Assembly: GCA_965198065.1 (NCBI GenBank)
Contig: CBDAON010000004.1
Span: 1,248,001-1,312,000, forward strand
Length of the DNA stretch: 64,000 nt
DNA from: Longimicrobiales bacterium
GTDB taxonomy: Bacteria > Gemmatimonadota > Gemmatimonadetes > Longimicrobiales > Gaopeijiaceae
Reading direction: 5' to 3'
Shown: positions 26,117 to 35,722 of the stretch, one piece after another
Numbering within the stretch: the stretch's first letter is position 1
How the letters are laid out: each line of letters starts with the position of its first letter
Program-made: the position numbers and the translations under genes
Notes under the pieces: model-generated
Told to the model about the DNA's origin: nothing
Database searches by the model: none
What the model saw: only the letters and a program-made list of their open reading frames with translations

Positions 26117-26803
26117 TCATCGCCTGCGCTGGAGCAGCTCCCGCTCCACGTCTTCCCACGAGGCCCCGGCCCCCTTCAGGGCCACGAGCAGGTGATAGAT
26201 CAGGTCGGCCGCCTCCCGGTGAGCCGAGCTCCCGCCGCGTGCGAGCTCGCTGACGAGCTCGGCCACCTCCTCCCCTAGCTTCTTCAGGCGGAGGTTCTCG
26301 TCGTCGAGGAGGCGGGTCGTGTAGCTTCCCTCGGGGCGCTGGACGGCCCGCTCTTCGATGACCCGCCATAGATCGACGAGCACGGGAGTGCCCGCCCTCC
26401 CCTTTCCGCCGCCGTCGTCCGGCCCGGGGCCGGTGCGGGGAGCCCCGGGGACCGCCCCCAACCCGAAGCAGGCGGGCTCCCCGGTATGGCACGCGGGTCC
26501 CGCAGGCGTCACCAGGGCCAGCACCGTGTCCCCGTCGCAGTCCGCGTGGATGGAGACCACGGCCTGGGTGTTCCCCGAGGTCTCTCCCTTCTTCCAGAGC
26601 GCGTTTCGCGAGCGGGACCAGTAATGCATGGTCCCGGTCGCGAGCGTCGTCTCGAGCGCCGCCCGGGTCGCCCATGCGAGCATGAGCACGTGGCCGGTCC
26701 CCGCGTTCTGCACGACCACGGGGAGGAGCCCGCGCGCATCGAACGCGAGGGCGTCCAAATCAGACGCGTCCTGGATTCTCCGGTCGGTGGACGGTGGTGT
26801 CAC
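26117..26803 (-). CDS. hisIE: Bifunctional PR-AMP cyclohydrolase / PR-ATP pyrophosphatase
   Basis: [35 protein letters not shown] 26803 overlaps the hisF stop. Confidence 0.93.
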
Positions 26804-27585
26804 TGGGAGGTCCCGGTAAGGGGCGGCGGCGGCGCCCGAACGGGAATCCCCCATGCGGCGAGCCGCTCCTTCAGGTCACGCACTGTCGTGAGGCCGTCGT
26901 GCAGGATGCCCGCGAGGAGCACCGCCGAGGCGCCCCCCTCCGTGAAGCCGTCCCGGAGGTGCTCGGGGGTGCCCGCGCCGCCCGAGGCGATGACGGGCAC
27001 GCTCACGGCCTCGGCCACCGCCTGGGTGAGCTCAAGATCGTATCCCGAGCGTACGCCGTCGCGGTCGATCGAGGTAAGGAGCACTTCCCCAGCACCGCGC
27101 TCCACGCACTCCCGCGCCCAGCTCACAGCGTCGAGGTCCGTCCGCCGCCGTCCCCCGAGCGTGTGGTGGTACCAGCCCTCTCCGTCCCGGGCCGCATCGA
27201 TCGAGATGACGACACACTGGCTCCCGAAGCGGTCGGCGCCCCTCGTCAGGACATCGGGATCGCGCACGGCCCCCGAGTTCACGCTCACCTTGTCCGCGCC
27301 GGCTCGGAGCAGGGCGTCCATGTCCTCGACGGCGCGAACGCCACCACCCACCGTGAGCGGAACGAAGAGGACTTCGGCCGTTCGTCGCACGGTCTCGAGG
27401 AGCGTTCCCCGTCCTTCGTGCGAGGCCGAGATGTCCAGGAACACAACTTCGTCGGCGCCCTCACCCTCGTAGCGGCGAGCGAGCTCGACGGGGTCTCCCA
27501 CGTCCCGGAGCTCCTTGAACCTGGTGCCCTTCACGACACGGCCGTCGTGCACGTCCAGGCAGACGATGATGCGGGGCCGGAGCAC
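26800..27585 (-). CDS. hisF: Imidazole glycerol phosphate synthase cyclase subunit
   Basis: [42 protein letters not shown]. Confidence 0.95.
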
Positions 27586-27589
27586 GAGT

Positions 27590-28192
27590 TCAGTTTTCCT
27601 CCCGCCCGGTCCTGGGCGGGGCGCCCTTCGGGGAGTCGGTGGGCCCCGCCGCCGCCTTCCCTTCACGCACCGTGACGGCGCCCTTCGTGGAAAAGACCTC
27701 GTCCCCCACGCGTAGGGCCTGACGGAGCGCGAGCCCCGTCGCCTTAACGGCGGCTTCCACGACGTGGTGGCGATCCCTTCCCCGGAGCACCCGAACGTGG
27801 AGCGTGGCTCCCAGGTTCATCGCGAACGAGCGAAGGAGGTGCTCGTAGAGCGTAGACGGGAGGCGGCCCTCGTAATGGGCTCTCCCACCCACGTCGATCG
27901 CGGCCTGGACGAGCGCCTCGTCCATGGGGACAAGGGCCCAACCGTACCGCTCCGCCTTGGCAGGAAGGTCGCGGGACAGCGCCGATCCGAGGGTGATCGC
28001 GGCGTCCTCGACCAGGTGGTGCCGAAGGTCTCCCGTGCCCTCCATCTCGAGCCCGAGATCCCCGTAACGCGCCAGGGTCTCGATCATGTGATCGAGGAAG
28101 GCGTCGCCCGTCGAGACCTCGACGGGGCCCCTGCCGATCCTCACATCCGCCATGATTCGCGTTTCCTTGGTCTCCCTCTCGATTCGGCTCAT
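27590..28192 (-). CDS. hisB: Imidazoleglycerol-phosphate dehydratase (monofunctional)
   Basis: RETKET, FLDHM, HHLVED, PMDEAL, HHVVEA, STKG. Confidence 0.93.
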
Positions 28193-28902
28193 CCTCCGAA
28201 CTCCTCCGCGACCTCGTCCGCGTCTAGGATTCCCGTGTAGAGCGCCATCCCGAGCACGGCGCCGGCGGCGCCCCGATCCCTGAGGAAGCGCAACTCGTCA
28301 ATCGTCGTGACGCCACCCGAGATCCAGACCGGGTGTGGTGAAGCCGCGAGGACCTGGTCGACCCCGCCCCGGTCGATACCCTCCGCCCTGCCCTCCCGCC
28401 CGACGTCCGTCCATAGCACCCCGGCGAGCGGAAGCGTCCCGATGTCCTCGAGGAAGGCCTCCACGTCCAGGGACGTCTCCTCGGTCCACCCTCGTCGAAG
28501 AACCCTCCCGGCCCGCGCGTCAGCGGCCAGGATCACCGTGTCCGGGAAGCGGCCCGCGATCTCTCTTCGCCAGGCGGGATCGTCGATTGCTCGGGTGCCC
28601 AGGATGATTCGATCCACTCCGGCCCCGATGAGGACCCTGGCCCGATCGGTGTCCCGGATCCCGCCTCCCACCTGGATCTCCCCGGGCGCGTCCCGCGCGA
28701 TCCGGGACACGAGATCCAGGTTTCCGCCTCTGTCGAGCGCCGCGTCCAGATCCACCACGTGAAGCACGCGAAACCCACGGTCCCGCCAGCCACGGGCGAC
28801 ACCCACCGGGTCCGGAAGGGAGACCCGCTCGTCCTCGGGTCGTCCCCCGACGAGCTGGACGCAGCGTCCGTCCTTGAGATCCACGGCGGGCGCGGCAATC
28901 AT
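28189..28902 (-). CDS. hisA: ProFAR isomerase
   Basis: PAVDLKDGRCVQL, HVVDLDAA, QVGGGIR, TDVGREG, SGG. Confidence 0.9.
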   Translation of the reverse strand: MIAAPAVDLKDGRCVQLVGGRPEDERVSLPDPVGVARGWRDRGFRVLHVVDLDAALDRGGNLDLVSRIARDAPGEIQVGGGIRDTDRARVLIGAGVDRIILGTRAIDDPAWRREIAGRFPDTVILAADARAGRVLRRGWTEETSLDVEAFLEDIGTLPLAGVLWTDVGREGRAEGIDRGGVDQVLAASPHPVWISGGVTTIDELRFLRDRGAAGAVLGMALYTGILDADEVAEEFGG

Positions 28903-29504
28903 CCCCCCACCTCCCGCACGAAGTTGGCGAGCACCCGGAGCCCGGCTGCGGAGCTCTTCTCCGGGTGGAACTGGAAGCCCCAGGTCCGACCCTTTCGCAC
29001 GGCAGCGGCGAACGTCTCTCCCTCGTAGCTGGATCGGGCGATCACCGAATCGGCTTCGGCCTCATCCACCTCGCACACGAACGAGTTCGCGTAGTAGGCG
29101 GGAAAGGTGCCGATCCCACGGAGCGCGGGATCCGACCCTCCCTCCACGTCGTTCCACCCCATCTGGGGGACGGTTCGGGCGCGGAGCCTCCGGACCTTCC
29201 CGGAAAGAAGCCCGATCCCGGCGCCCGGGGCCTCCTCGCTCTCCGGGAAGAGGAGCTGCATCCCCAGGCAGATCCCGAGGCACGGGAGTCCCGCGTCCAG
29301 CGCCTCACGCACCCGCTCGCGCTCTCCCCCCAGGCCGCGGACGGCGGATCCAAACGAGCCCACGCCCGGAAGGACCAGACCGTCCCGGTCCAGGGCTTCC
29401 CTCCAGTCCGAGGTTACGGTGACCCGGGCCCCGCCCCGCTCGAGTCCCTTCCCGAGCGAATGCAGGTTTCCCGCACCGTAGTCGAAGAGCGCGAGATGGA
29501 TCAT
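28899..29504 (-). CDS. hisH: Imidazole glycerol phosphate synthase glutaminase subunit
   Basis: ATG 29504 (ATGA overlap); DYGAGNL, LPGVG, GICLGMQ, QFHPEKS. Confidence 0.95.
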   Translation of the reverse strand: MIHLALFDYGAGNLHSLGKGLERGGARVTVTSDWREALDRDGLVLPGVGSFGSAVRGLGGERERVREALDAGLPCLGICLGMQLLFPESEEAPGAGIGLLSGKVRRLRARTVPQMGWNDVEGGSDPALRGIGTFPAYYANSFVCEVDEAEADSVIARSSYEGETFAAAVRKGRTWGFQFHPEKSSAAGLRVLANFVREVGG

Positions 29505-30607
29505 AGGGGGGCCTCGTCGCGCAGGGGGCGCTCGGGGGCCTCGTTGGCGAAGGAGCGCTCGGCGAGCACCTCGTCCAGTGCCCGGAGGAAACGGTCGGTC
29601 TCGCGCCGTGGGCCCACCGAGACCCGAACGGCGTCGCCGATCCTGGGAAGGCCGGGGAACGGCCGCACCCCGACCCCTCGCTCGCTCAGCCCGGCCGTCA
29701 CGCCGGGCACGGTCCCTTCCGGGACCGGGAGGAGGAGGAAGTTGGCCTGGGACGGGATGGGGACGAGTCCCCGTGCTTCTAGCTCTCGGCGGAGTCGGTC
29801 CCGCTCCTCCCTGACCTTGGCGACGATCGCCGGCACCCAACCCTCCCGGTCCTCGAGGGCGACCAGTGCGGCTCCCTCGGCTGCTCGGCCCACCTTGTAC
29901 GGGCCCCTCGACTTCTCCACCTCGGCGATCACGCCCGCCGGCCCGACCGCGAAACCCACGCGCAGCCCGGCGAGCCCGTAAGCCTTGGAAAACGTCCGGA
30001 CCACGAGGAGGCGGTGTGAAGCTGCCGCCTCGCGAAGGAAGTCGTCGTCCGCGAAATCGGCATACGCCTCGTCGAGCAGGATGATCGGGCCTTCGGGGTC
30101 GGCTGCCTCGACCAGGCCCTCGACCCAGGCACGGGGCGCTGCCTCCCCCGTGGGGTTGTTGGGACGACAGACATACACGACGGCGGCGCGACGTTCGACG
30201 AGGGCCCCGGGTTCCGCGGCCGCCTCCATGGGTACCGGGTCCGGATCGAGCCCGCTCGCGCGGGCGAACACCTCCACCATCGAAAAGGTCGGCGGGAGGT
30301 ACGCCACCCGCTCGCCACCGTCCCCTGCGGCCCGGAAGATCGAGTCGAGGAGGTCGTCCGAGCCGCACCCCGTGACCACGGACTCCTCAGGTACATCGAA
30401 CCGTCGGGCGATCGCCCCGCGGAGCCCATCGGCGTACACGGAAGGGTAACGGACCAGATCCTCCTCGCGGGCGGCCCTGAGGGCACGGAGTGCTCCGGGG
30501 TGGGGTCCCCAGCGGTTCGTGTTGTCCGAGAGGTCCACCTCGACCGGCCGCCGGTCTGGGGCGTAGCGGGCGATACGCCGGTAGGGCTCGCGAGGGAACG
30601 GGCTCAT
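29501..30607 (-). CDS. hisC: Histidinol-phosphate aminotransferase
   Basis: GSDD, PNNPTG, DEAY, RTFSKAYGLAGLRVG. Confidence 0.93.
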   Translation of the reverse strand: MSPFPREPYRRIARYAPDRRPVEVDLSDNTNRWGPHPGALRALRAAREEDLVRYPSVYADGLRGAIARRFDVPEESVVTGCGSDDLLDSIFRAAGDGGERVAYLPPTFSMVEVFARASGLDPDPVPMEAAAEPGALVERRAAVVYVCRPNNPTGEAAPRAWVEGLVEAADPEGPIILLDEAYADFADDDFLREAAASHRLLVVRTFSKAYGLAGLRVGFAVGPAGVIAEVEKSRGPYKVGRAAEGAALVALEDREGWVPAIVAKVREERDRLRRELEARGLVPIPSQANFLLLPVPEGTVPGVTAGLSERGVGVRPFPGLPRIGDAVRVSVGPRRETDRFLRALDEVLAERSFANEAPERPLRDEAPL

Positions 30608-31941
30608 GGCCGGGCCCTCGCCCGGACGGCCGCCGCGTGGGCGGGGAGCCCTTCGGCCTCGGCCATCCGACCGACGTCGTCCGACAGAGCCGCGGCCCCC
30701 TCCTCGGAGACCTCCTGCCAGTTGAAGACGCGGCCGAAATCCAGCACGGAGAGACCGGAGAACGACCGGGCCCGGCCCCCCGTGGGAAGCACGTGGTTCG
30801 CCCCGGTGACGTAATCGCCGAACGCAACCGACGAGGCGTCTCCGAGGAACACCGTGCCGGCCGTCGATTGGGTCTCGAGGTCGCGCGCCGGATCGTCCGT
30901 GAAGAGCGCGAGGTGCTCGGCCGCGTACGCCTCCGCGAAGCCGAGTGCCTCGCTCCGGTCTCCCGCCAGGAGGATCGCGCCCCTGGTCGCCAGCGCGGCT
31001 TCAACGATCTCCTTCCTCCCCGCCGCGGCCACCCGCGCCCCCAGAGCGTTTCGGACCTCCTCCAGGAGCTTCGCGCTCCAGCTCACGACGGCCACCGAGG
31101 CGTCGGGGTCGTGCTCGGCCTGCGCGACCAGCTCGGCCGCCACCCGCTCGGGGTCCGCCGAGCCGTCTGCCACCACGAGTACCTCCGAGGGGCCGGCCGG
31201 CGAATCGATCCGGAGCTCGCCCGCGACCTGCCTTTTGGCCTCGGTGACCCATCGGTTCCCGGGCCCGACGATGGCGTCGACCCTCGGCACCGAGGCCGTC
31301 CCGTAGGCTAGGGCACCGATTGCTCCCGCCCCGCCGATGGCTAGGAGCCTCGAGGCCCCCGCGATGGCGCAGGCCGTGAGGACGTGGGGCGGCGGCTCGC
31401 CGGAGGCGCCGGGGGGCGAGCAAACGATGACGTCCTCCACTCCCGCGGCGCGGGCCGGTACCACGCCCATGAGGACGGACGAGGGGTAGGCCGCCCGGCC
31501 CCCCGGGGCGTAGACGCCCACCGCCCGGAGCGGAACGAACCTCCGACCAAGGCGCACCCCGGGCTCGATCTCGACCACGAGCTCGTTCGGGATCTGGGCC
31601 TCGTGAAACGCGCGGATGTTTCGGGCCGCTCGCTCGAGCGCGGCGACAAGGGAGGGATCGAGCGAACGCCTCGCGGCCTCCCACCTCACGGACGGCACCT
31701 CCAGGGAGCGAAGCTCGACGCCGTCCAGCTCCCGCGCCATCTGCAGGAGCGCGGCGTCCCCTTCGGTCCGGACTCGGGTGAGGATGGTCCGCACCGAGTC
31801 CCGAACACGCGCCTCGTCGGACGGTCTCCGCTCGAGGAGCAGGGCGCGCTCCGCCGGGCCGAGCTCCGAGACGCGGGCGTCCACGGCCAGCCGAAGGGAG
31901 GGCGCGCCGGCGCCCGGCGGTGAGCTTACTCCCTTCGTCAT
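30604..31941 (-). CDS. hisD: Histidinol dehydrogenase
   Basis: ATG 31941 (ATGA overlap); PGG..AYPSS, GPGN, AGPSE, QAEHD, GDY..GANHVLPT. Confidence 0.95.
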   Translation of the reverse strand: MTKGVSSPPGAGAPSLRLAVDARVSELGPAERALLLERRPSDEARVRDSVRTILTRVRTEGDAALLQMARELDGVELRSLEVPSVRWEAARRSLDPSLVAALERAARNIRAFHEAQIPNELVVEIEPGVRLGRRFVPLRAVGVYAPGGRAAYPSSVLMGVVPARAAGVEDVIVCSPPGASGEPPPHVLTACAIAGASRLLAIGGAGAIGALAYGTASVPRVDAIVGPGNRWVTEAKRQVAGELRIDSPAGPSEVLVVADGSADPERVAAELVAQAEHDPDASVAVVSWSAKLLEEVRNALGARVAAAGRKEIVEAALATRGAILLAGDRSEALGFAEAYAAEHLALFTDDPARDLETQSTAGTVFLGDASSVAFGDYVTGANHVLPTGGRARSFSGLSVLDFGRVFNWQEVSEEGAAALSDDVGRMAEAEGLPAHAAAVRARARP

Positions 31942-32801
31942 GGCATCAGCCGCTCGATTCGGGTGACCAGAATGCCCGCGGCCCCGAGTTCCTTCAGCCG
32001 TGAGATCGTCCGATCGACCTGGTCGGCTTCGACGACCGCGTGCGCCGCGACCCATGCTTCCCTGTCCAGCACATCCACGATTGTCGGGCCCGTGATGCCG
32101 GGTAACACCTTGCGAACCTCATCCAGCCGATCTCGCGGCACGTTGGCCATCAGGTAGCGGTGGCGCTTCGCGCGGAGCACCGACTCAAGGGCGGTCACGA
32201 GCCGCTCTCCGCTGCGCTGGGCGCCGCCGCCATTCCAGGCCGCGCGATTCGCGATGAGGCGGGCGGACGAATCGAGAACGGTCCCGACCTCCTTGAGCCC
32301 GTTCACGCGCAGGGTCGAGCCCGTCGAGGCCAGGTCCACGATCACGTCGGCCACCCCCAGGTGAGGCGCGATCTCGGCCGCGCCCGATACAGGTACGAGC
32401 TGGATCCCGATCCCGAGCGACTCGAAGTGCCGGCGGGCCAGGTTGGGGAAGGAGGTGGCCACGCGGCTTCCCTCTTCCAGCTTTGCCGGATCGTCCACGG
32501 GCGACTCCTCCCGGACGGCGATCACGAGGCGACACTTCCCGAATCCCAGGTCGAGGAGCTCGAAGACCTCGTCCCGTCCGGACTCCTCTACGAGGTCCCG
32601 GCCGGTGATCCCGAACTCGGCCGCTCCATCCGCGACGAACTCGGGAACGTCCTGCGCGCGGACGAAGATGGCCTGAAACTCCGAGCCGAGTCGGGCCAGG
32701 AGGGATCGGTCGGCCCTGAACTCGGGCTTGAGCCCGGCTTCGTCGAACAGCTCGAGCGCGCTGTTCGAGAGGCGGCCCTTGTTCGGTATCGCGATTCTCA
32801 T
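31938..32801 (-). CDS. hisG: ATP phosphoribosyltransferase, long form
   Basis: IAIPNKGRL, GITGRD, DLGFG, GAAE, DLASTGSTL, C-terminal regulatory domain. Confidence 0.95.
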   Translation of the reverse strand: MRIAIPNKGRLSNSALELFDEAGLKPEFRADRSLLARLGSEFQAIFVRAQDVPEFVADGAAEFGITGRDLVEESGRDEVFELLDLGFGKCRLVIAVREESPVDDPAKLEEGSRVATSFPNLARRHFESLGIGIQLVPVSGAAEIAPHLGVADVIVDLASTGSTLRVNGLKEVGTVLDSSARLIANRAAWNGGGAQRSGERLVTALESVLRAKRHRYLMANVPRDRLDEVRKVLPGITGPTIVDVLDREAWVAAHAVVEADQVDRTISRLKELGAAGILVTRIERLMP

Positions 32802-32823
32802 CCGTGCTCCACCGTCCGCGTGT

Positions 32824-32858
32824 AAAAAAAAGCGGCCCGTCCGGTTGGGACGGGCCGC
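32824..32858 (-). terminator. Attenuator terminator of the his operon
   Basis: GCGGCCCGTCC-CAACC-GGACGGGCCGC (perfect 11 bp) followed by T8, 22 nt upstream of hisG. Confidence 0.92.
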
Positions 32859-32879
32859 GGGGTTCGGTCGCGCTCGGTT

Positions 32880-32963
32880 TCAGGGGCGCACGCCGACCTC
32901 CACCCGTCCCGTCCGGGACCGGCGATGATGGTCGTGATAGTGGTGCGCCACGTACCGGTGCAT
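32880..32963 (-). CDS. hisL: his operon leader peptide MHRYVAHHYHDHHRRSRTGRVEVGVRP
   Basis: Six His in the first 13 codons, directly upstream of the terminator and hisG. Confidence 0.88.
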   Translation of the reverse strand: MHRYVAHHYHDHHRRSRTGRVEVGVRP

Positions 32964-32970
32964 GGCGAGG

Positions 32971-32999
32971 AAGCTACCGGCGCGGGGAGGCGCGGTCAA
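32971..32999 (-). promoter_or_regulatory. his promoter TTGACC-N17-TAGCTT
   Basis: -35 at 32999-32994, -10 at 32976-32971, only 7 nt before the leader ATG. Confidence 0.75.
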
Positions 33000-33376
33000 A
33001 CGGCGAGGCGCGACCCCGTGTAGCGCGAACTCCGATGGCGACGCCCCGGAAACGAGGCCGGCCGGGCGGCGAAGCCAACCAACGGTGGTGCGGGACCCGT
33101 CCGTCCCGGCCCTTGGCTGCCCCCGGGCGCCGGCTCTACGTTTCATCCCGCGTTCCGACCGCCCTGTCGGTCGGCCGACGTAAGCGTAAGTGCCCACGCC
33201 ACTGGCCTTGCCGGATGAGCGTCGAGTACCGAGACGAGCGATGCGCTGCCGGGCTACGGCGAGGAGGAGTGACGAACGATCAACTGCACATCCGCCACAC
33301 GCCCAACGGCGTGTGGAACATGACGTGGGTGAGCGCGGGCCACCACACCTGTGCGAAGCATCCGTTAGTGCACTGA

Positions 33377-35722
33377 ATGGGCGCTGAATCTCCCACTGCG
33401 GGGCGCGACTTCGTCCGGCAGATCATCGACAGGGACCTGGAGACCGGGGCGACCGAGGGCAGGGTAATCACCCGCTTCCCTCCGGAGCCAAACGGCTTCC
33501 TCCATATCGGTCACGCTAAGTCGCTCGTCCTGAACTTCGGGCTGGCCCAGGATTACGCGGGGGCCCGCTGCCATCTCCGCTTCGACGACACGAACCCCGC
33601 CACGGAGGACCTCCGGTACGTCCGGGCGATCGAGGAGGACGTCCGTTGGCTGGGATACGAGTGGAGCGAGCACCTGTACTTTGCCTCGGACTACTTCGAG
33701 GAGATGTACGGTTTTGCCGAGGAGCTGATCCAGAAGGGGCTCGCCTATGTGGACTCTCAGAGCGAGGAGGCGATCCGGGAGCAGCGGGGCACCGTGACCG
33801 AGCCCGGGCGGGCGAGCCCGCATCGGGAGCGCGCCGTGGAAGAAAGTCTCCGGCTGTTTCGGGAGATGAGGGAGGGAGAGCACGGCGACGGGGAGCACGT
33901 CCTTCGGGCGAAGATCGACATGGGATCGGCCAACATGCTCATGCGCGACCCCGTTCTCTATCGGATTCGCCACGCGGATCACTATCGGACCGGGGGGAGT
34001 TGGTGCATCTATCCCCTCTACGACTATGCCCATCCGCTCGAGGACGCCCTCGAGGGTATCACGCACTCGCTCTGCACGCTCGAGTTCGCCAACAACCGGG
34101 AGCTTTACGACTGGGTGGTCGAGAACGTGAGCGTCCCGCACCGGCCGCGTCAGTATGAGTTTGCGCGCCTGAGTCTCGACTACACGGTCATGAGCAAGCG
34201 CCGCTTTCTGCGGCTGGTCGAGGAGGGCGACGTCGCGGGGTGGGACGACCCACGAATGCCGACGCTGGCGGGCCTCCGGAGGCGCGGCGTCACTCCGGAG
34301 GCGATCCGGGGATTCTGCGAGATGGTCGGAGTCGGGCGCTCGGACTCGCGGGTGGACATCGCGAAGCTCGAGTACGCGATCCGGGACGACCTGAACCGTA
34401 GGGCTCCGCGTGTCCTCGCCGTGCTTCGCCCCCTTAAGGTCACGGTGATCGGGTGGCCCAAGGCCAGGGTGGACGCCTGTGACGCTCCGTATTTCCCTCA
34501 CGATGTTCCAGGGGAGGGCAGCCGGCCCCTCCCGTTCAGCGGCGAGATCTACATCGATCGGGACGACTTCGCCGAGAACCCGCCCCCGGGGTTCCGGAGG
34601 CTCGTGCCCGGGGGAGAGGTGCGGCTCCGGTACGCGTACGTCATCCGCTGCGAGGAGGTGGTGAAGAACGAGGCGGGCAAGGTGGTCGAGCTCCGGTGCA
34701 CCTACGATCCCGAAACGTGGGGACGGAACCCGCCCGACGGCCGATCCGTGAAGGGGACCATCCAATGGGTATCCGCGGCCCACGCAGTGCCGTGCGATGT
34801 CCACCTCTACGATCGCCTCTTTACCGTGCCCGATCCCGAGGCCGAGGCGATCGAGAGGGGAGGCGACTCGACGTTTCGGGACTTCCTGAACCCTGCGTCC
34901 CTCGAGGTCGTCGAGGGCGCGCTGGTGGAGCCGTCGATCGCGGGGGATCCCGGGGATACGCGCTACCAGTTCGAGCGGGTCGGTTACTTCTGGCGGGATC
35001 CTGTGGACGGCCGCGGTGACCGACCCGTGTTCAACCGGATCGTAACGCTCCGGGACACGTGGGCTAGAGTGAAGGCCGGCGGCGTTAAGCGCGGTCCGCG
35101 TGCGCGCCCCGAGGCTCCGGCGGAGAGGCGGTCCGACGGGGACGGCGCTCGGCGCGCGCCCGTGGCGCGGGAACGGGCGGCCGAGCTTCAGGCACGGTTT
35201 GGCCTGGACCCTGCCGATGCGGAGATCCTGGCCAGAGACGCGTCCACGAGTGCCTTCTTCCTGGCCGCCGTGGACGCCTCCTCGGACGCGGGTGCCGAGG
35301 ACAACTACCGGTCGGCGGCCCTCGTTGCGAACTGGATGATCAACGTCCTTCCGTCGGTAGCCGGTGGGCGAGAGCTCGCGGAGCTTCCCATGCGACCCCC
35401 CGAGTTCGCTGCGCTCGTCTCGCTGGTGGAGGAGGGGGTGGTCTCCAGACGGGCGGGGGCAGCGGTTCTAGAAGCCATGGCGCGCGACGGCGGGAACCCG
35501 CGGGAGATCGTCGAGCGGCTGAACCTCCGACAGGTGAGCGACGCCGAGTCCCTGATCCCCATCGTGAAAGAGGTGGTCGGGGGCTACCCCGACAAAGTGG
35601 AGGAATACCGTGCCGGAAAGGTGGAGCTCGTGGGGTTCTTCATGGGCCAGGTCATGCGGCGCTCGGGCGGCCGTGCGGACCCGGGCGTGGTGAGGCGGCT
35701 CCTGGACGAAGCGTTGCGGTAG
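33377..35722 (+). CDS. glnS: Glutamine--tRNA ligase with C-terminal YqeY domain
   Basis: TRFPPEPNG, HIGH, RFDDTNP, MSKR, FERVGYF; C-terminal QVSD...GFFMGQVMR...ADP. Confidence 0.96.
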   Translation: MGAESPTAGRDFVRQIIDRDLETGATEGRVITRFPPEPNGFLHIGHAKSLVLNFGLAQDYAGARCHLRFDDTNPATEDLRYVRAIEEDVRWLGYEWSEHLYFASDYFEEMYGFAEELIQKGLAYVDSQSEEAIREQRGTVTEPGRASPHRERAVEESLRLFREMREGEHGDGEHVLRAKIDMGSANMLMRDPVLYRIRHADHYRTGGSWCIYPLYDYAHPLEDALEGITHSLCTLEFANNRELYDWVVENVSVPHRPRQYEFARLSLDYTVMSKRRFLRLVEEGDVAGWDDPRMPTLAGLRRRGVTPEAIRGFCEMVGVGRSDSRVDIAKLEYAIRDDLNRRAPRVLAVLRPLKVTVIGWPKARVDACDAPYFPHDVPGEGSRPLPFSGEIYIDRDDFAENPPPGFRRLVPGGEVRLRYAYVIRCEEVVKNEAGKVVELRCTYDPETWGRNPPDGRSVKGTIQWVSAAHAVPCDVHLYDRLFTVPDPEAEAIERGGDSTFRDFLNPASLEVVEGALVEPSIAGDPGDTRYQFERVGYFWRDPVDGRGDRPVFNRIVTLRDTWARVKAGGVKRGPRARPEAPAERRSDGDGARRAPVARERAAELQARFGLDPADAEILARDASTSAFFLAAVDASSDAGAEDNYRSAALVANWMINVLPSVAGGRELAELPMRPPEFAALVSLVEEGVVSRRAGAAVLEAMARDGGNPREIVERLNLRQVSDAESLIPIVKEVVGGYPDKVEEYRAGKVELVGFFMGQVMRRSGGRADPGVVRRLLDEALR

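Follow-up and report, generated by a model that had tools for sequence, protein, structure and literature searches.

The hisG Leader Region

The window, by which we mean the whole 64,000-nucleotide stretch of Longimicrobiales DNA analyzed here, carries on its minus strand a histidine operon in the order hisGDCHABF(IE), and between its promoter and hisG lie a histidine-rich short ORF and an intrinsic terminator. The features are given below, with transcript nucleotides numbered from the A of the leader AUG.

32994..32999, minus strand: -35 hexamer TTGACC (sequence, and pattern kept in relatives)
32971..32976, minus strand: -10 hexamer TAGCTT, 17 nt past the -35 (sequence)
32963..32970, minus strand: pyrimidine-rich 7-nt spacer CCTCGCC (32970-32964) and predicted +1 at the A of the ATG, 32963 (from spacing)
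32880..32963, minus strand: leader ORF, 27 aa, MHRYVAHHYHDHHRRSRTGRVEVGVRP, with His at codons 2, 7, 8, 10, 12, and 13 (sequence)
32894..32934, minus strand: protector (1:2) hairpin, nt 30-70 (predicted minimum free energy fold)
32847..32910, minus strand: antiterminator (2:3), nt 54-62 with 109-117, inner stem nt 66-76 with 91-105 (constrained folding)
32832..32858, minus strand: intrinsic terminator (3:4), nt 106-132, 11 bp, -24.8 kcal/mol (terminator search and folding)
32824..32831, minus strand: U8 tract (sequence)
31938..32801, minus strand: hisG, long form, SD-led, first gene of the operon (TIGR00070, 214 bits; TIGR03455)
26117..32055, minus strand: hisD, hisC, hisH, hisA, hisB, hisF, and hisIE (ORFs and NCBIfam)

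The leader places 6 His in 27 codons, so that a His-rich short ORF stands directly 5' of the operon that makes the same end product. Among the 14,623 short ATG ORFs of the 3.05 Mb genome it is the sole one with at least five His in seven codons; because this His-dense ORF is unique in the genome and the arrangement is kept in relatives, the layout goes beyond chance. The leader peptide matched no Pfam family at E values up to 1. The hisG ATG lies at 32801, with GGAG at 32810-32807 upstream of it. Three of the downstream genes (hisC, hisA, and hisB) score below the curated NCBIfam cut-offs, yet a his family is still the best match for each. The hisIE gene is fused (26117-26854, minus strand), hisB has the short monofunctional form, and no histidinol-phosphatase gene was recognized among the nine ORFs scanned in the window. 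Divergent from the his promoter lies glnS (33377-35722, plus strand), with a C-terminal YqeY/GatB-like domain (NF011291); in the his-glnS intergenic region, at 33248-33300, short contigs of several sequencing runs pile up with 85% likeness, possibly reflecting a motif common to other organisms.

Conservation of the Leader

To follow the arrangement in relatives, we pooled 30 loci from 61 related genomes (48 with a match) with the 80 best HisG relatives in a named collection, nearly all of them labeled Gemmatimonadota and many Longimicrobiales. Of these 110 loci, nine duplicates and three with less than 90 nt upstream (L003, L012, and L107) were left out; the 98 kept, window included, are nonduplicate and have at least 400 nt upstream of hisG. 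Since kin are not independent, the locus figures given here are counts, not tests. A short ORF with at least three His in nine codons precedes hisG in 96 of the 98 loci, as the original prediction would require of its His codons; L023 and L025 have no His ORF before hisG. A terminator was called in 95 of the 96 loci with a His ORF, L004 being the exception. The peptide sequence varies across loci while the His run is kept, and a genome of the same genus (G001) retains the ORF, the promoter, and the hairpins. Going by bin labels, the element also occurs in records assigned to Acidobacteriota (L090, L091, L096, and L097), Eisenbacteria (L108), Archangiaceae (L110), and Gammaproteobacteria (L040).

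A broader sample of 60 loci, hand-picked from the 133 hisG-bearing genomes among 201 of the phylum, contains a His ORF in 42, and 30 of these 42 show the promoter pattern. Nine of the 18 hand-picked loci lacking a His ORF apparently have hisG directly behind another ORF, and all three hand-picked loci of another class (f10) are without one; the L132 and L109 peptides are identical and probably come from one genome. At L137, L141-L147, and L172, hisG has no His leader and apparently lies directly behind, or overlaps, another ORF. More divergent hisG genes of the Gemmatimonadota (L151-L168) have His leaders with a different terminator stem, of the GCCGGC or CCCCGGGG type, and this difference in sequence suggests a second subfamily.

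Promoter and Predicted Leaderless Start

The promoter proposed originally, TTGACC-N17-TAGCTT followed after 7 nt by an ATG with no Shine-Dalgarno sequence, is present in every part; like it, the other elements of that prediction lie at the coordinates given for them. The anti-SD duplex at the leader ATG amounts to -3.1 kcal/mol. With this 7-nt gap, the predicted +1 in the window falls on, or within 3 nt of, a start codon that has no SD. A stock promoter scan of the region listed no promoters; the two hexamers match the E. coli consensus at 8 of 12 positions, against a threshold of 9. Because the initial choice of leader starts had used the promoter score in part, we re-scanned all loci independently with a pattern fixed beforehand, TTG[AC]CN-N16-18-xAxxxT. 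In 87 of 96 loci this pattern ends 5-11 nt 5' of where the leader ORF starts (gaps of 5, 6, 7, 8, 9, 10, and 11 nt in 5, 20, 26, 12, 21, 2, and 1 loci, respectively), with no match in 32,374 nt of control DNA further upstream and one extra match within a leader. Counting from 5 nt past the hexamer, the first pyrimidine-purine step coincides with the start codon in 73 of the 87 loci and comes 1-5 nt earlier in 14. At position -1, just before the leader start, 92 of 96 loci have C or T. SD-like words stand ahead of 5 of the 96 leaders, compared with 54 of the 96 hisG starts, the latter count permitting any in-frame start close by.

The genome as a whole shows a peak of TAnnnT 5-9 nt 5' of 1,077 ATG starts (49 counts versus a background of ~2.5 per position), in a start profile built on our own rough gene calls. 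This peak stands beside a larger SD peak, and leaderless genes therefore appear, from sequence, to form a minority class in this genome. The spacing of the promoter, the scarcity of SD sequences, and the ~95 relatives together support the originally proposed leaderless start as the probable one, and the fixed promoter-AUG spacing offers a usable promoter consensus for Gemmatimonadota. Contigs of one RNA run (0.06 of words) touch hisG and not the leader, and have no bearing on transcript start, end, or level.

Competing RNA Hairpins

The leader region folds at z = -3.63. The 11-bp terminator and U8 tract anticipated before hisG were found at 32858-32832 and 32831-32824, and GGGACGGG (32910-32903) is complementary to CCCGUCCC (32854-32847) in the terminator 5' arm. 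A third element needs amendment: the hairpin GUCCC-GGAC-GGGAC at 32919-32906 does exist, but it is the mere apex of a longer, 41-nt protector hairpin (32934-32894), whose 5' strand takes in His codons 10-13 in the predicted fold. Before the terminator 3' arm exists, pairing of 32910-32903 with 32854-32847, the antiterminator register first proposed, has P of 0.94-0.96, and a second register, nt 50-56 with 110-116, has P of 0.03-0.05 in the window. We considered whether the first-proposed register was wrong and rejected this for the present genome (P 0.95 vs. 0.05); unlike in the window, the commonest register among relatives uses the first copy.

The antiterminator is mutually exclusive with the terminator, and this relation is conserved: in 92 of 95 loci a core complementary to the terminator 5' arm lies 8-20 nt past the last His codon, as expected if the pairing matters, a result favored by picking the register for best pairing. 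In L008, L067, and L091 the core is not fully paired. A CGGG core lies 8, 9, 10, or 11 nt past the last His codon in 12, 13, 5, and 38 of the 92 loci, respectively (68 in total). Cores of the CGGG type occur in all three reading frames, the peptides reading PTG, PDG, or PGR, which points to a constraint that acts on the RNA. Three-way compensated changes, involving region 2, the terminator 5' arm, and its 3' arm, are present in L016, L028, L073, L074, L079, and L105. Covariation among relatives, proposed at the outset as a check, is modest: column shuffles were exceeded at several flanking columns, but the tree-corrected tests were not significant (median p 0.5-1, at most nine independent pairs). 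At column -1, 21 of 94 loci are unpaired.

Proposed Switching Mechanism

We propose that RNA polymerase would start at 32963 and that a ribosome would load on the 5'-terminal AUG independently of an SD. Given ample charged tRNA-His, the ribosome would reach the UGA, and the 1:2 hairpin would re-form behind it and hold GGGACGGG; the 3:4 hairpin could then form, and transcription would stop in the U8 tract. When His is scarce, the ribosome would stall at the last His codons (nt 34-39), covering the 5' strand of the 1:2 hairpin to about nt 48 and leaving nt 50-62 free. These free nucleotides would capture the terminator 5' arm before its 3' arm is made, and the polymerase would enter hisG. At equilibrium the full-length leader adopts the terminator, and from this we infer that the choice between hairpins is kinetic.

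Folding with ribosome masks, which extend from 15 nt upstream of the A site to 9-12 nt downstream of it, bears on these steps. In transcripts that end just short of the terminator 5' arm, a 5' partner sequesters the core in 90 of 92 loci when no ribosome is present, in 87 with the mask at the first His codon, in 82 with the mask at the stop codon, and in 31-38 with the mask at the last His codon. In the window, sequestration of the core falls from 0.75 to 0.02-0.13 with the mask at the last His. The modeled masks give the pattern that an attenuator needs, in which a stall at the last His would free the strand and a ribosome at the stop codon would let the protector re-form. In mask folding, direct release of the antiterminator strand is confined to stalls at the last His codons.

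At equilibrium, the full-length leader forms the terminator with P of 0.91-1.0 whichever ribosome mask is applied; in transcripts that still lack the 3' arm, the antiterminator reaches P of ~0.95 even without a ribosome. Applied to 95 loci, equilibrium folding with masks left the states unseparated, and the free 5' sequence also gave spurious partners. We also applied a barrier-limited cotranscriptional heuristic, which is noisy. The terminator formed in all three settings when the ribosome was absent or stalled at His 2. It was blocked in two of three settings by stalls at His 7, 8, and 13 (one of three with a shorter mask at His 13) and in none of three by stalls at His 10 and 12; with the ribosome reaching the stop codon, it formed in just one or two of the three.

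The logic of enterobacterial hisL attenuation, invoked in the original prediction, receives support from folding models and from conservation in ~95 relatives. The conserved His-codon leader, the competing hairpins, and the terminator make it highly likely, in our judgment, that this element is a ribosome-mediated attenuator with a transcript predicted to begin at the leader AUG.

A Natural Stop-Codon Allele

In the contigs of three runs (X5, X6, and X7), G>T at 32952 on the plus strand turns leader codon 4 from TAC into TAA, with GTG immediately after. These contigs, from two studies, are ~99% identical over the stretch at a depth of 2.8-3.8; at such low depth a single-contig error is possible, yet three runs concur. 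Runs X2, X3, and X4 match the window at codon 4. The stop-allele strains also have G>A at 32862 (nt 102, C to U), inside the inner antiterminator stem, and further strain differences fall at 32884, at 32967, and in the TTT run at 32998, where one T is lost and TTGACC is kept. Barring re-initiation at the GUG, the stop allele would not be inducible; it provides a ready natural test of what an untranslated leader does.

Alternative Explanations

Three other readings were weighed against that of an attenuator transcribed from its leader AUG. In one, the attenuator is the same, but its RNA begins slightly or far upstream of the AUG, and ribosomes enter the leader ORF either behind a short 5' end with no SD or at an SD-led start further upstream. 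The gap from hexamer to start is 9-11 nt in 24 of 87 loci, 5' leaders of 1-5 nt are predicted in 14 of 87, most genes of this genome contribute to the SD peak, and the window has an in-frame ATG with an SD-like site 183 nt upstream of the leader, with anti-SD pairing of -7.3 kcal/mol. Such upstream starts are, however, not conserved: an in-frame stop lies within 39 nt of the leader start in 37 of 96 loci, and 57 of 96 have no in-frame ATG or GTG upstream at all. The single purine of the window's spacer, moreover, lies only 5 nt past the -10 hexamer. We regard an upstream transcript start as unlikely. Decay of a real lineage-wide attenuator into a near-constitutive terminator in this species would accord with the TAA at codon 4 in X5, X6, and X7, but the window and X2, X3, and X4 (from two studies, X2 and X3 being possible sources of the window) keep the frame open, the same-genus genome keeps ORF, promoter, and hairpins, and the GTG directly behind the TAA could permit re-initiation; we consider such decay extremely improbable.

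A different kind of alternative accepts that His is sensed but places control in translational coupling, Rho, or a fixed partial terminator, so that the 2:3 pairing is no switch. It gains from the equilibrium preference for the terminator under all masks, from kinetics that are inconsistent between heuristic settings, and from covariation that loses significance after tree correction. Against it stand the compensated changes in six loci and the persistence of the core, in all three frames, at a spacing from the last His that fits a ribosome footprint. The hisG SD, moreover, lies outside the hairpins, at least 14 nt beyond the U tract; translational attenuation through SD occlusion was rejected on this ground, and for the same reason control on transcription is more likely than control on translation. 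A sensor without a 2:3 switch seems to us very unlikely, and we retain ribosome-mediated attenuation as the preferred reading.

Relation to Known Leaders

The Rfam His_leader search that had been suggested gave no support: neither the region nor the genome matched RF00514 at E values up to 10 (the cut-off is 49 bits, and a control search passes this in 1 of 14 control genomes), and by sequence the element does not belong to that enterobacterial family. No T-box or riboswitch lies over the leader among the five weak Rfam matches in 31500-34500. The hisL leaders of E. coli and Salmonella are described as a His-codon leader ORF with alternative terminator and antiterminator structures and a terminator before hisG (PMC3896937, PMC9413887), and the present element resembles them in its His leader ORF, its competing hairpins, and its intrinsic terminator before hisG. 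It differs from hisL, with its seven consecutive His, in having 27 aa and an interrupted His run. The enterobacterial his leader is SD-led, whereas the leader here is predicted to be leaderless. His attenuators that RF00514 does not detect have been predicted in the Bacillus cereus group, Eubacteriales, and Erysipelotrichales (PMC9413887); they likewise lie outside both Gammaproteobacteria and RF00514, belong to another phylum, the Firmicutes, and are likened to ours here by their description. The main text of that paper makes no mention of Gemmatimonadota.

Leaderless leader peptides have precedents. In Streptomyces lividans, trpL1, ilvL, and leuL2 are reported as leaderless leader peptides with U-tailed terminators and mapped 5' ends, and promoters there have 4-9 nt (mean 6.3) from -10 to transcription start, with 97% of leaderless starts being purines (PMC8079986), a mapped promoter-to-start geometry matched by the predicted one of the window. 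None of the eight S. lividans leaders listed in that source is for His. Corynebacterium glutamicum ilvL has been discussed as leaderless (PMC11857589), and Sinorhizobium meliloti trpL RNA is reported to begin at its ATG (PMC7298713). Like these leaders, as described, the present one has an ORF at the 5' end, then hairpins and a U tract, behind a promoter of the form TTGACn / TAnnnT; they differ in sensing Trp or branched-chain amino acids and in having mapped 5' ends, whereas the start here is predicted. The polycysteine short ORFs of mycobacteria are not known to use a terminator with a U tract, and the step that they chiefly affect is translation of the following gene. These leaderless poly-Cys ORFs are reported to control the downstream operon (10.1101/834739), and they share with the His leader a leaderless short ORF with an amino-acid run, theirs sensing Cys.

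Novelty is accordingly less than the original prediction had implied, because leaderless attenuators are in print for S. lividans, S. meliloti, and mycobacteria. The joining of leaderless initiation to attenuation has been published for Trp, Ile/Leu/Val, and Cys, while the combination with His, and with this phylum, was not found in print: literature searches, with most subscription journals beyond their reach, returned no paper on a Gemmatimonadota attenuator or a leaderless hisL. From its sequence and conservation, the element is very probably a real and strongly conserved His leader-peptide attenuator, leaderless and of an RNA family absent from Rfam. It would add histidine to the amino acids (Trp, branched-chain amino acids, and Cys) for which leaderless attenuation is known, the principle itself being textbook, and contribute a regulatory element to a phylum with almost no described gene regulation. 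The loci also provide the seed alignment from which a new family of His-leader RNAs, distinct from RF00514, can be built.

Companion Leaders in the Same Genome

We scanned the genome for the same promoter pattern followed by a short ORF. Two companions of the His leader lie outside the window:

L111:3360-3530 = G000:C4 about 1122860-1123030, minus strand: Cys/Met-rich leader
L112:3330-3590 = G000:C4 about 2403830-2404090, minus strand: aromatic leader

The former, a Cys/Met-rich ORF of 27 aa that lies 9 nt past its promoter and is followed by a terminator, precedes genes for PAPS reductase and sulfite reductase; 6 of 9 related loci have a Cys-rich ORF. The latter, a 48-aa ORF that bears a Phe/Tyr/Trp cluster and lies 7 nt past its promoter, is followed by a U-tailed hairpin and then by a DAHP synthase gene. 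Of 25 related loci, 18 have an aromatic-rich ORF, 13 of them with the promoter pattern. At G000:C4 about 1847305 (minus strand), a terminator lies 31-34 nt before a gene that we take from its sequence to be argJ-like, and upstream is an SD-led 51-aa ORF with scattered Arg; an Arg leader was rejected here, there being no clear leader ORF.

We tentatively put forward a broader proposal, to which we give slightly less than an even chance: that leaderless attenuation may be the standard amino-acid sensor of Gemmatimonadota, a single genome using it for His, aromatic amino acids, and Cys, that its RNA family, absent from Rfam, may also stand before hisG in the records labeled Acidobacteriota, Eisenbacteria, and Myxococcota, and that the codon-4 stop allele may still sense His by re-initiation at the GUG.

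The DAHP synthase ORF behind the aromatic leader (L112:2536-3291) ends at 252 aa and spans just positions 9-168 of the 270-position Pfam model; because it stops there and covers only part of the model, it looks frameshifted or misassembled.
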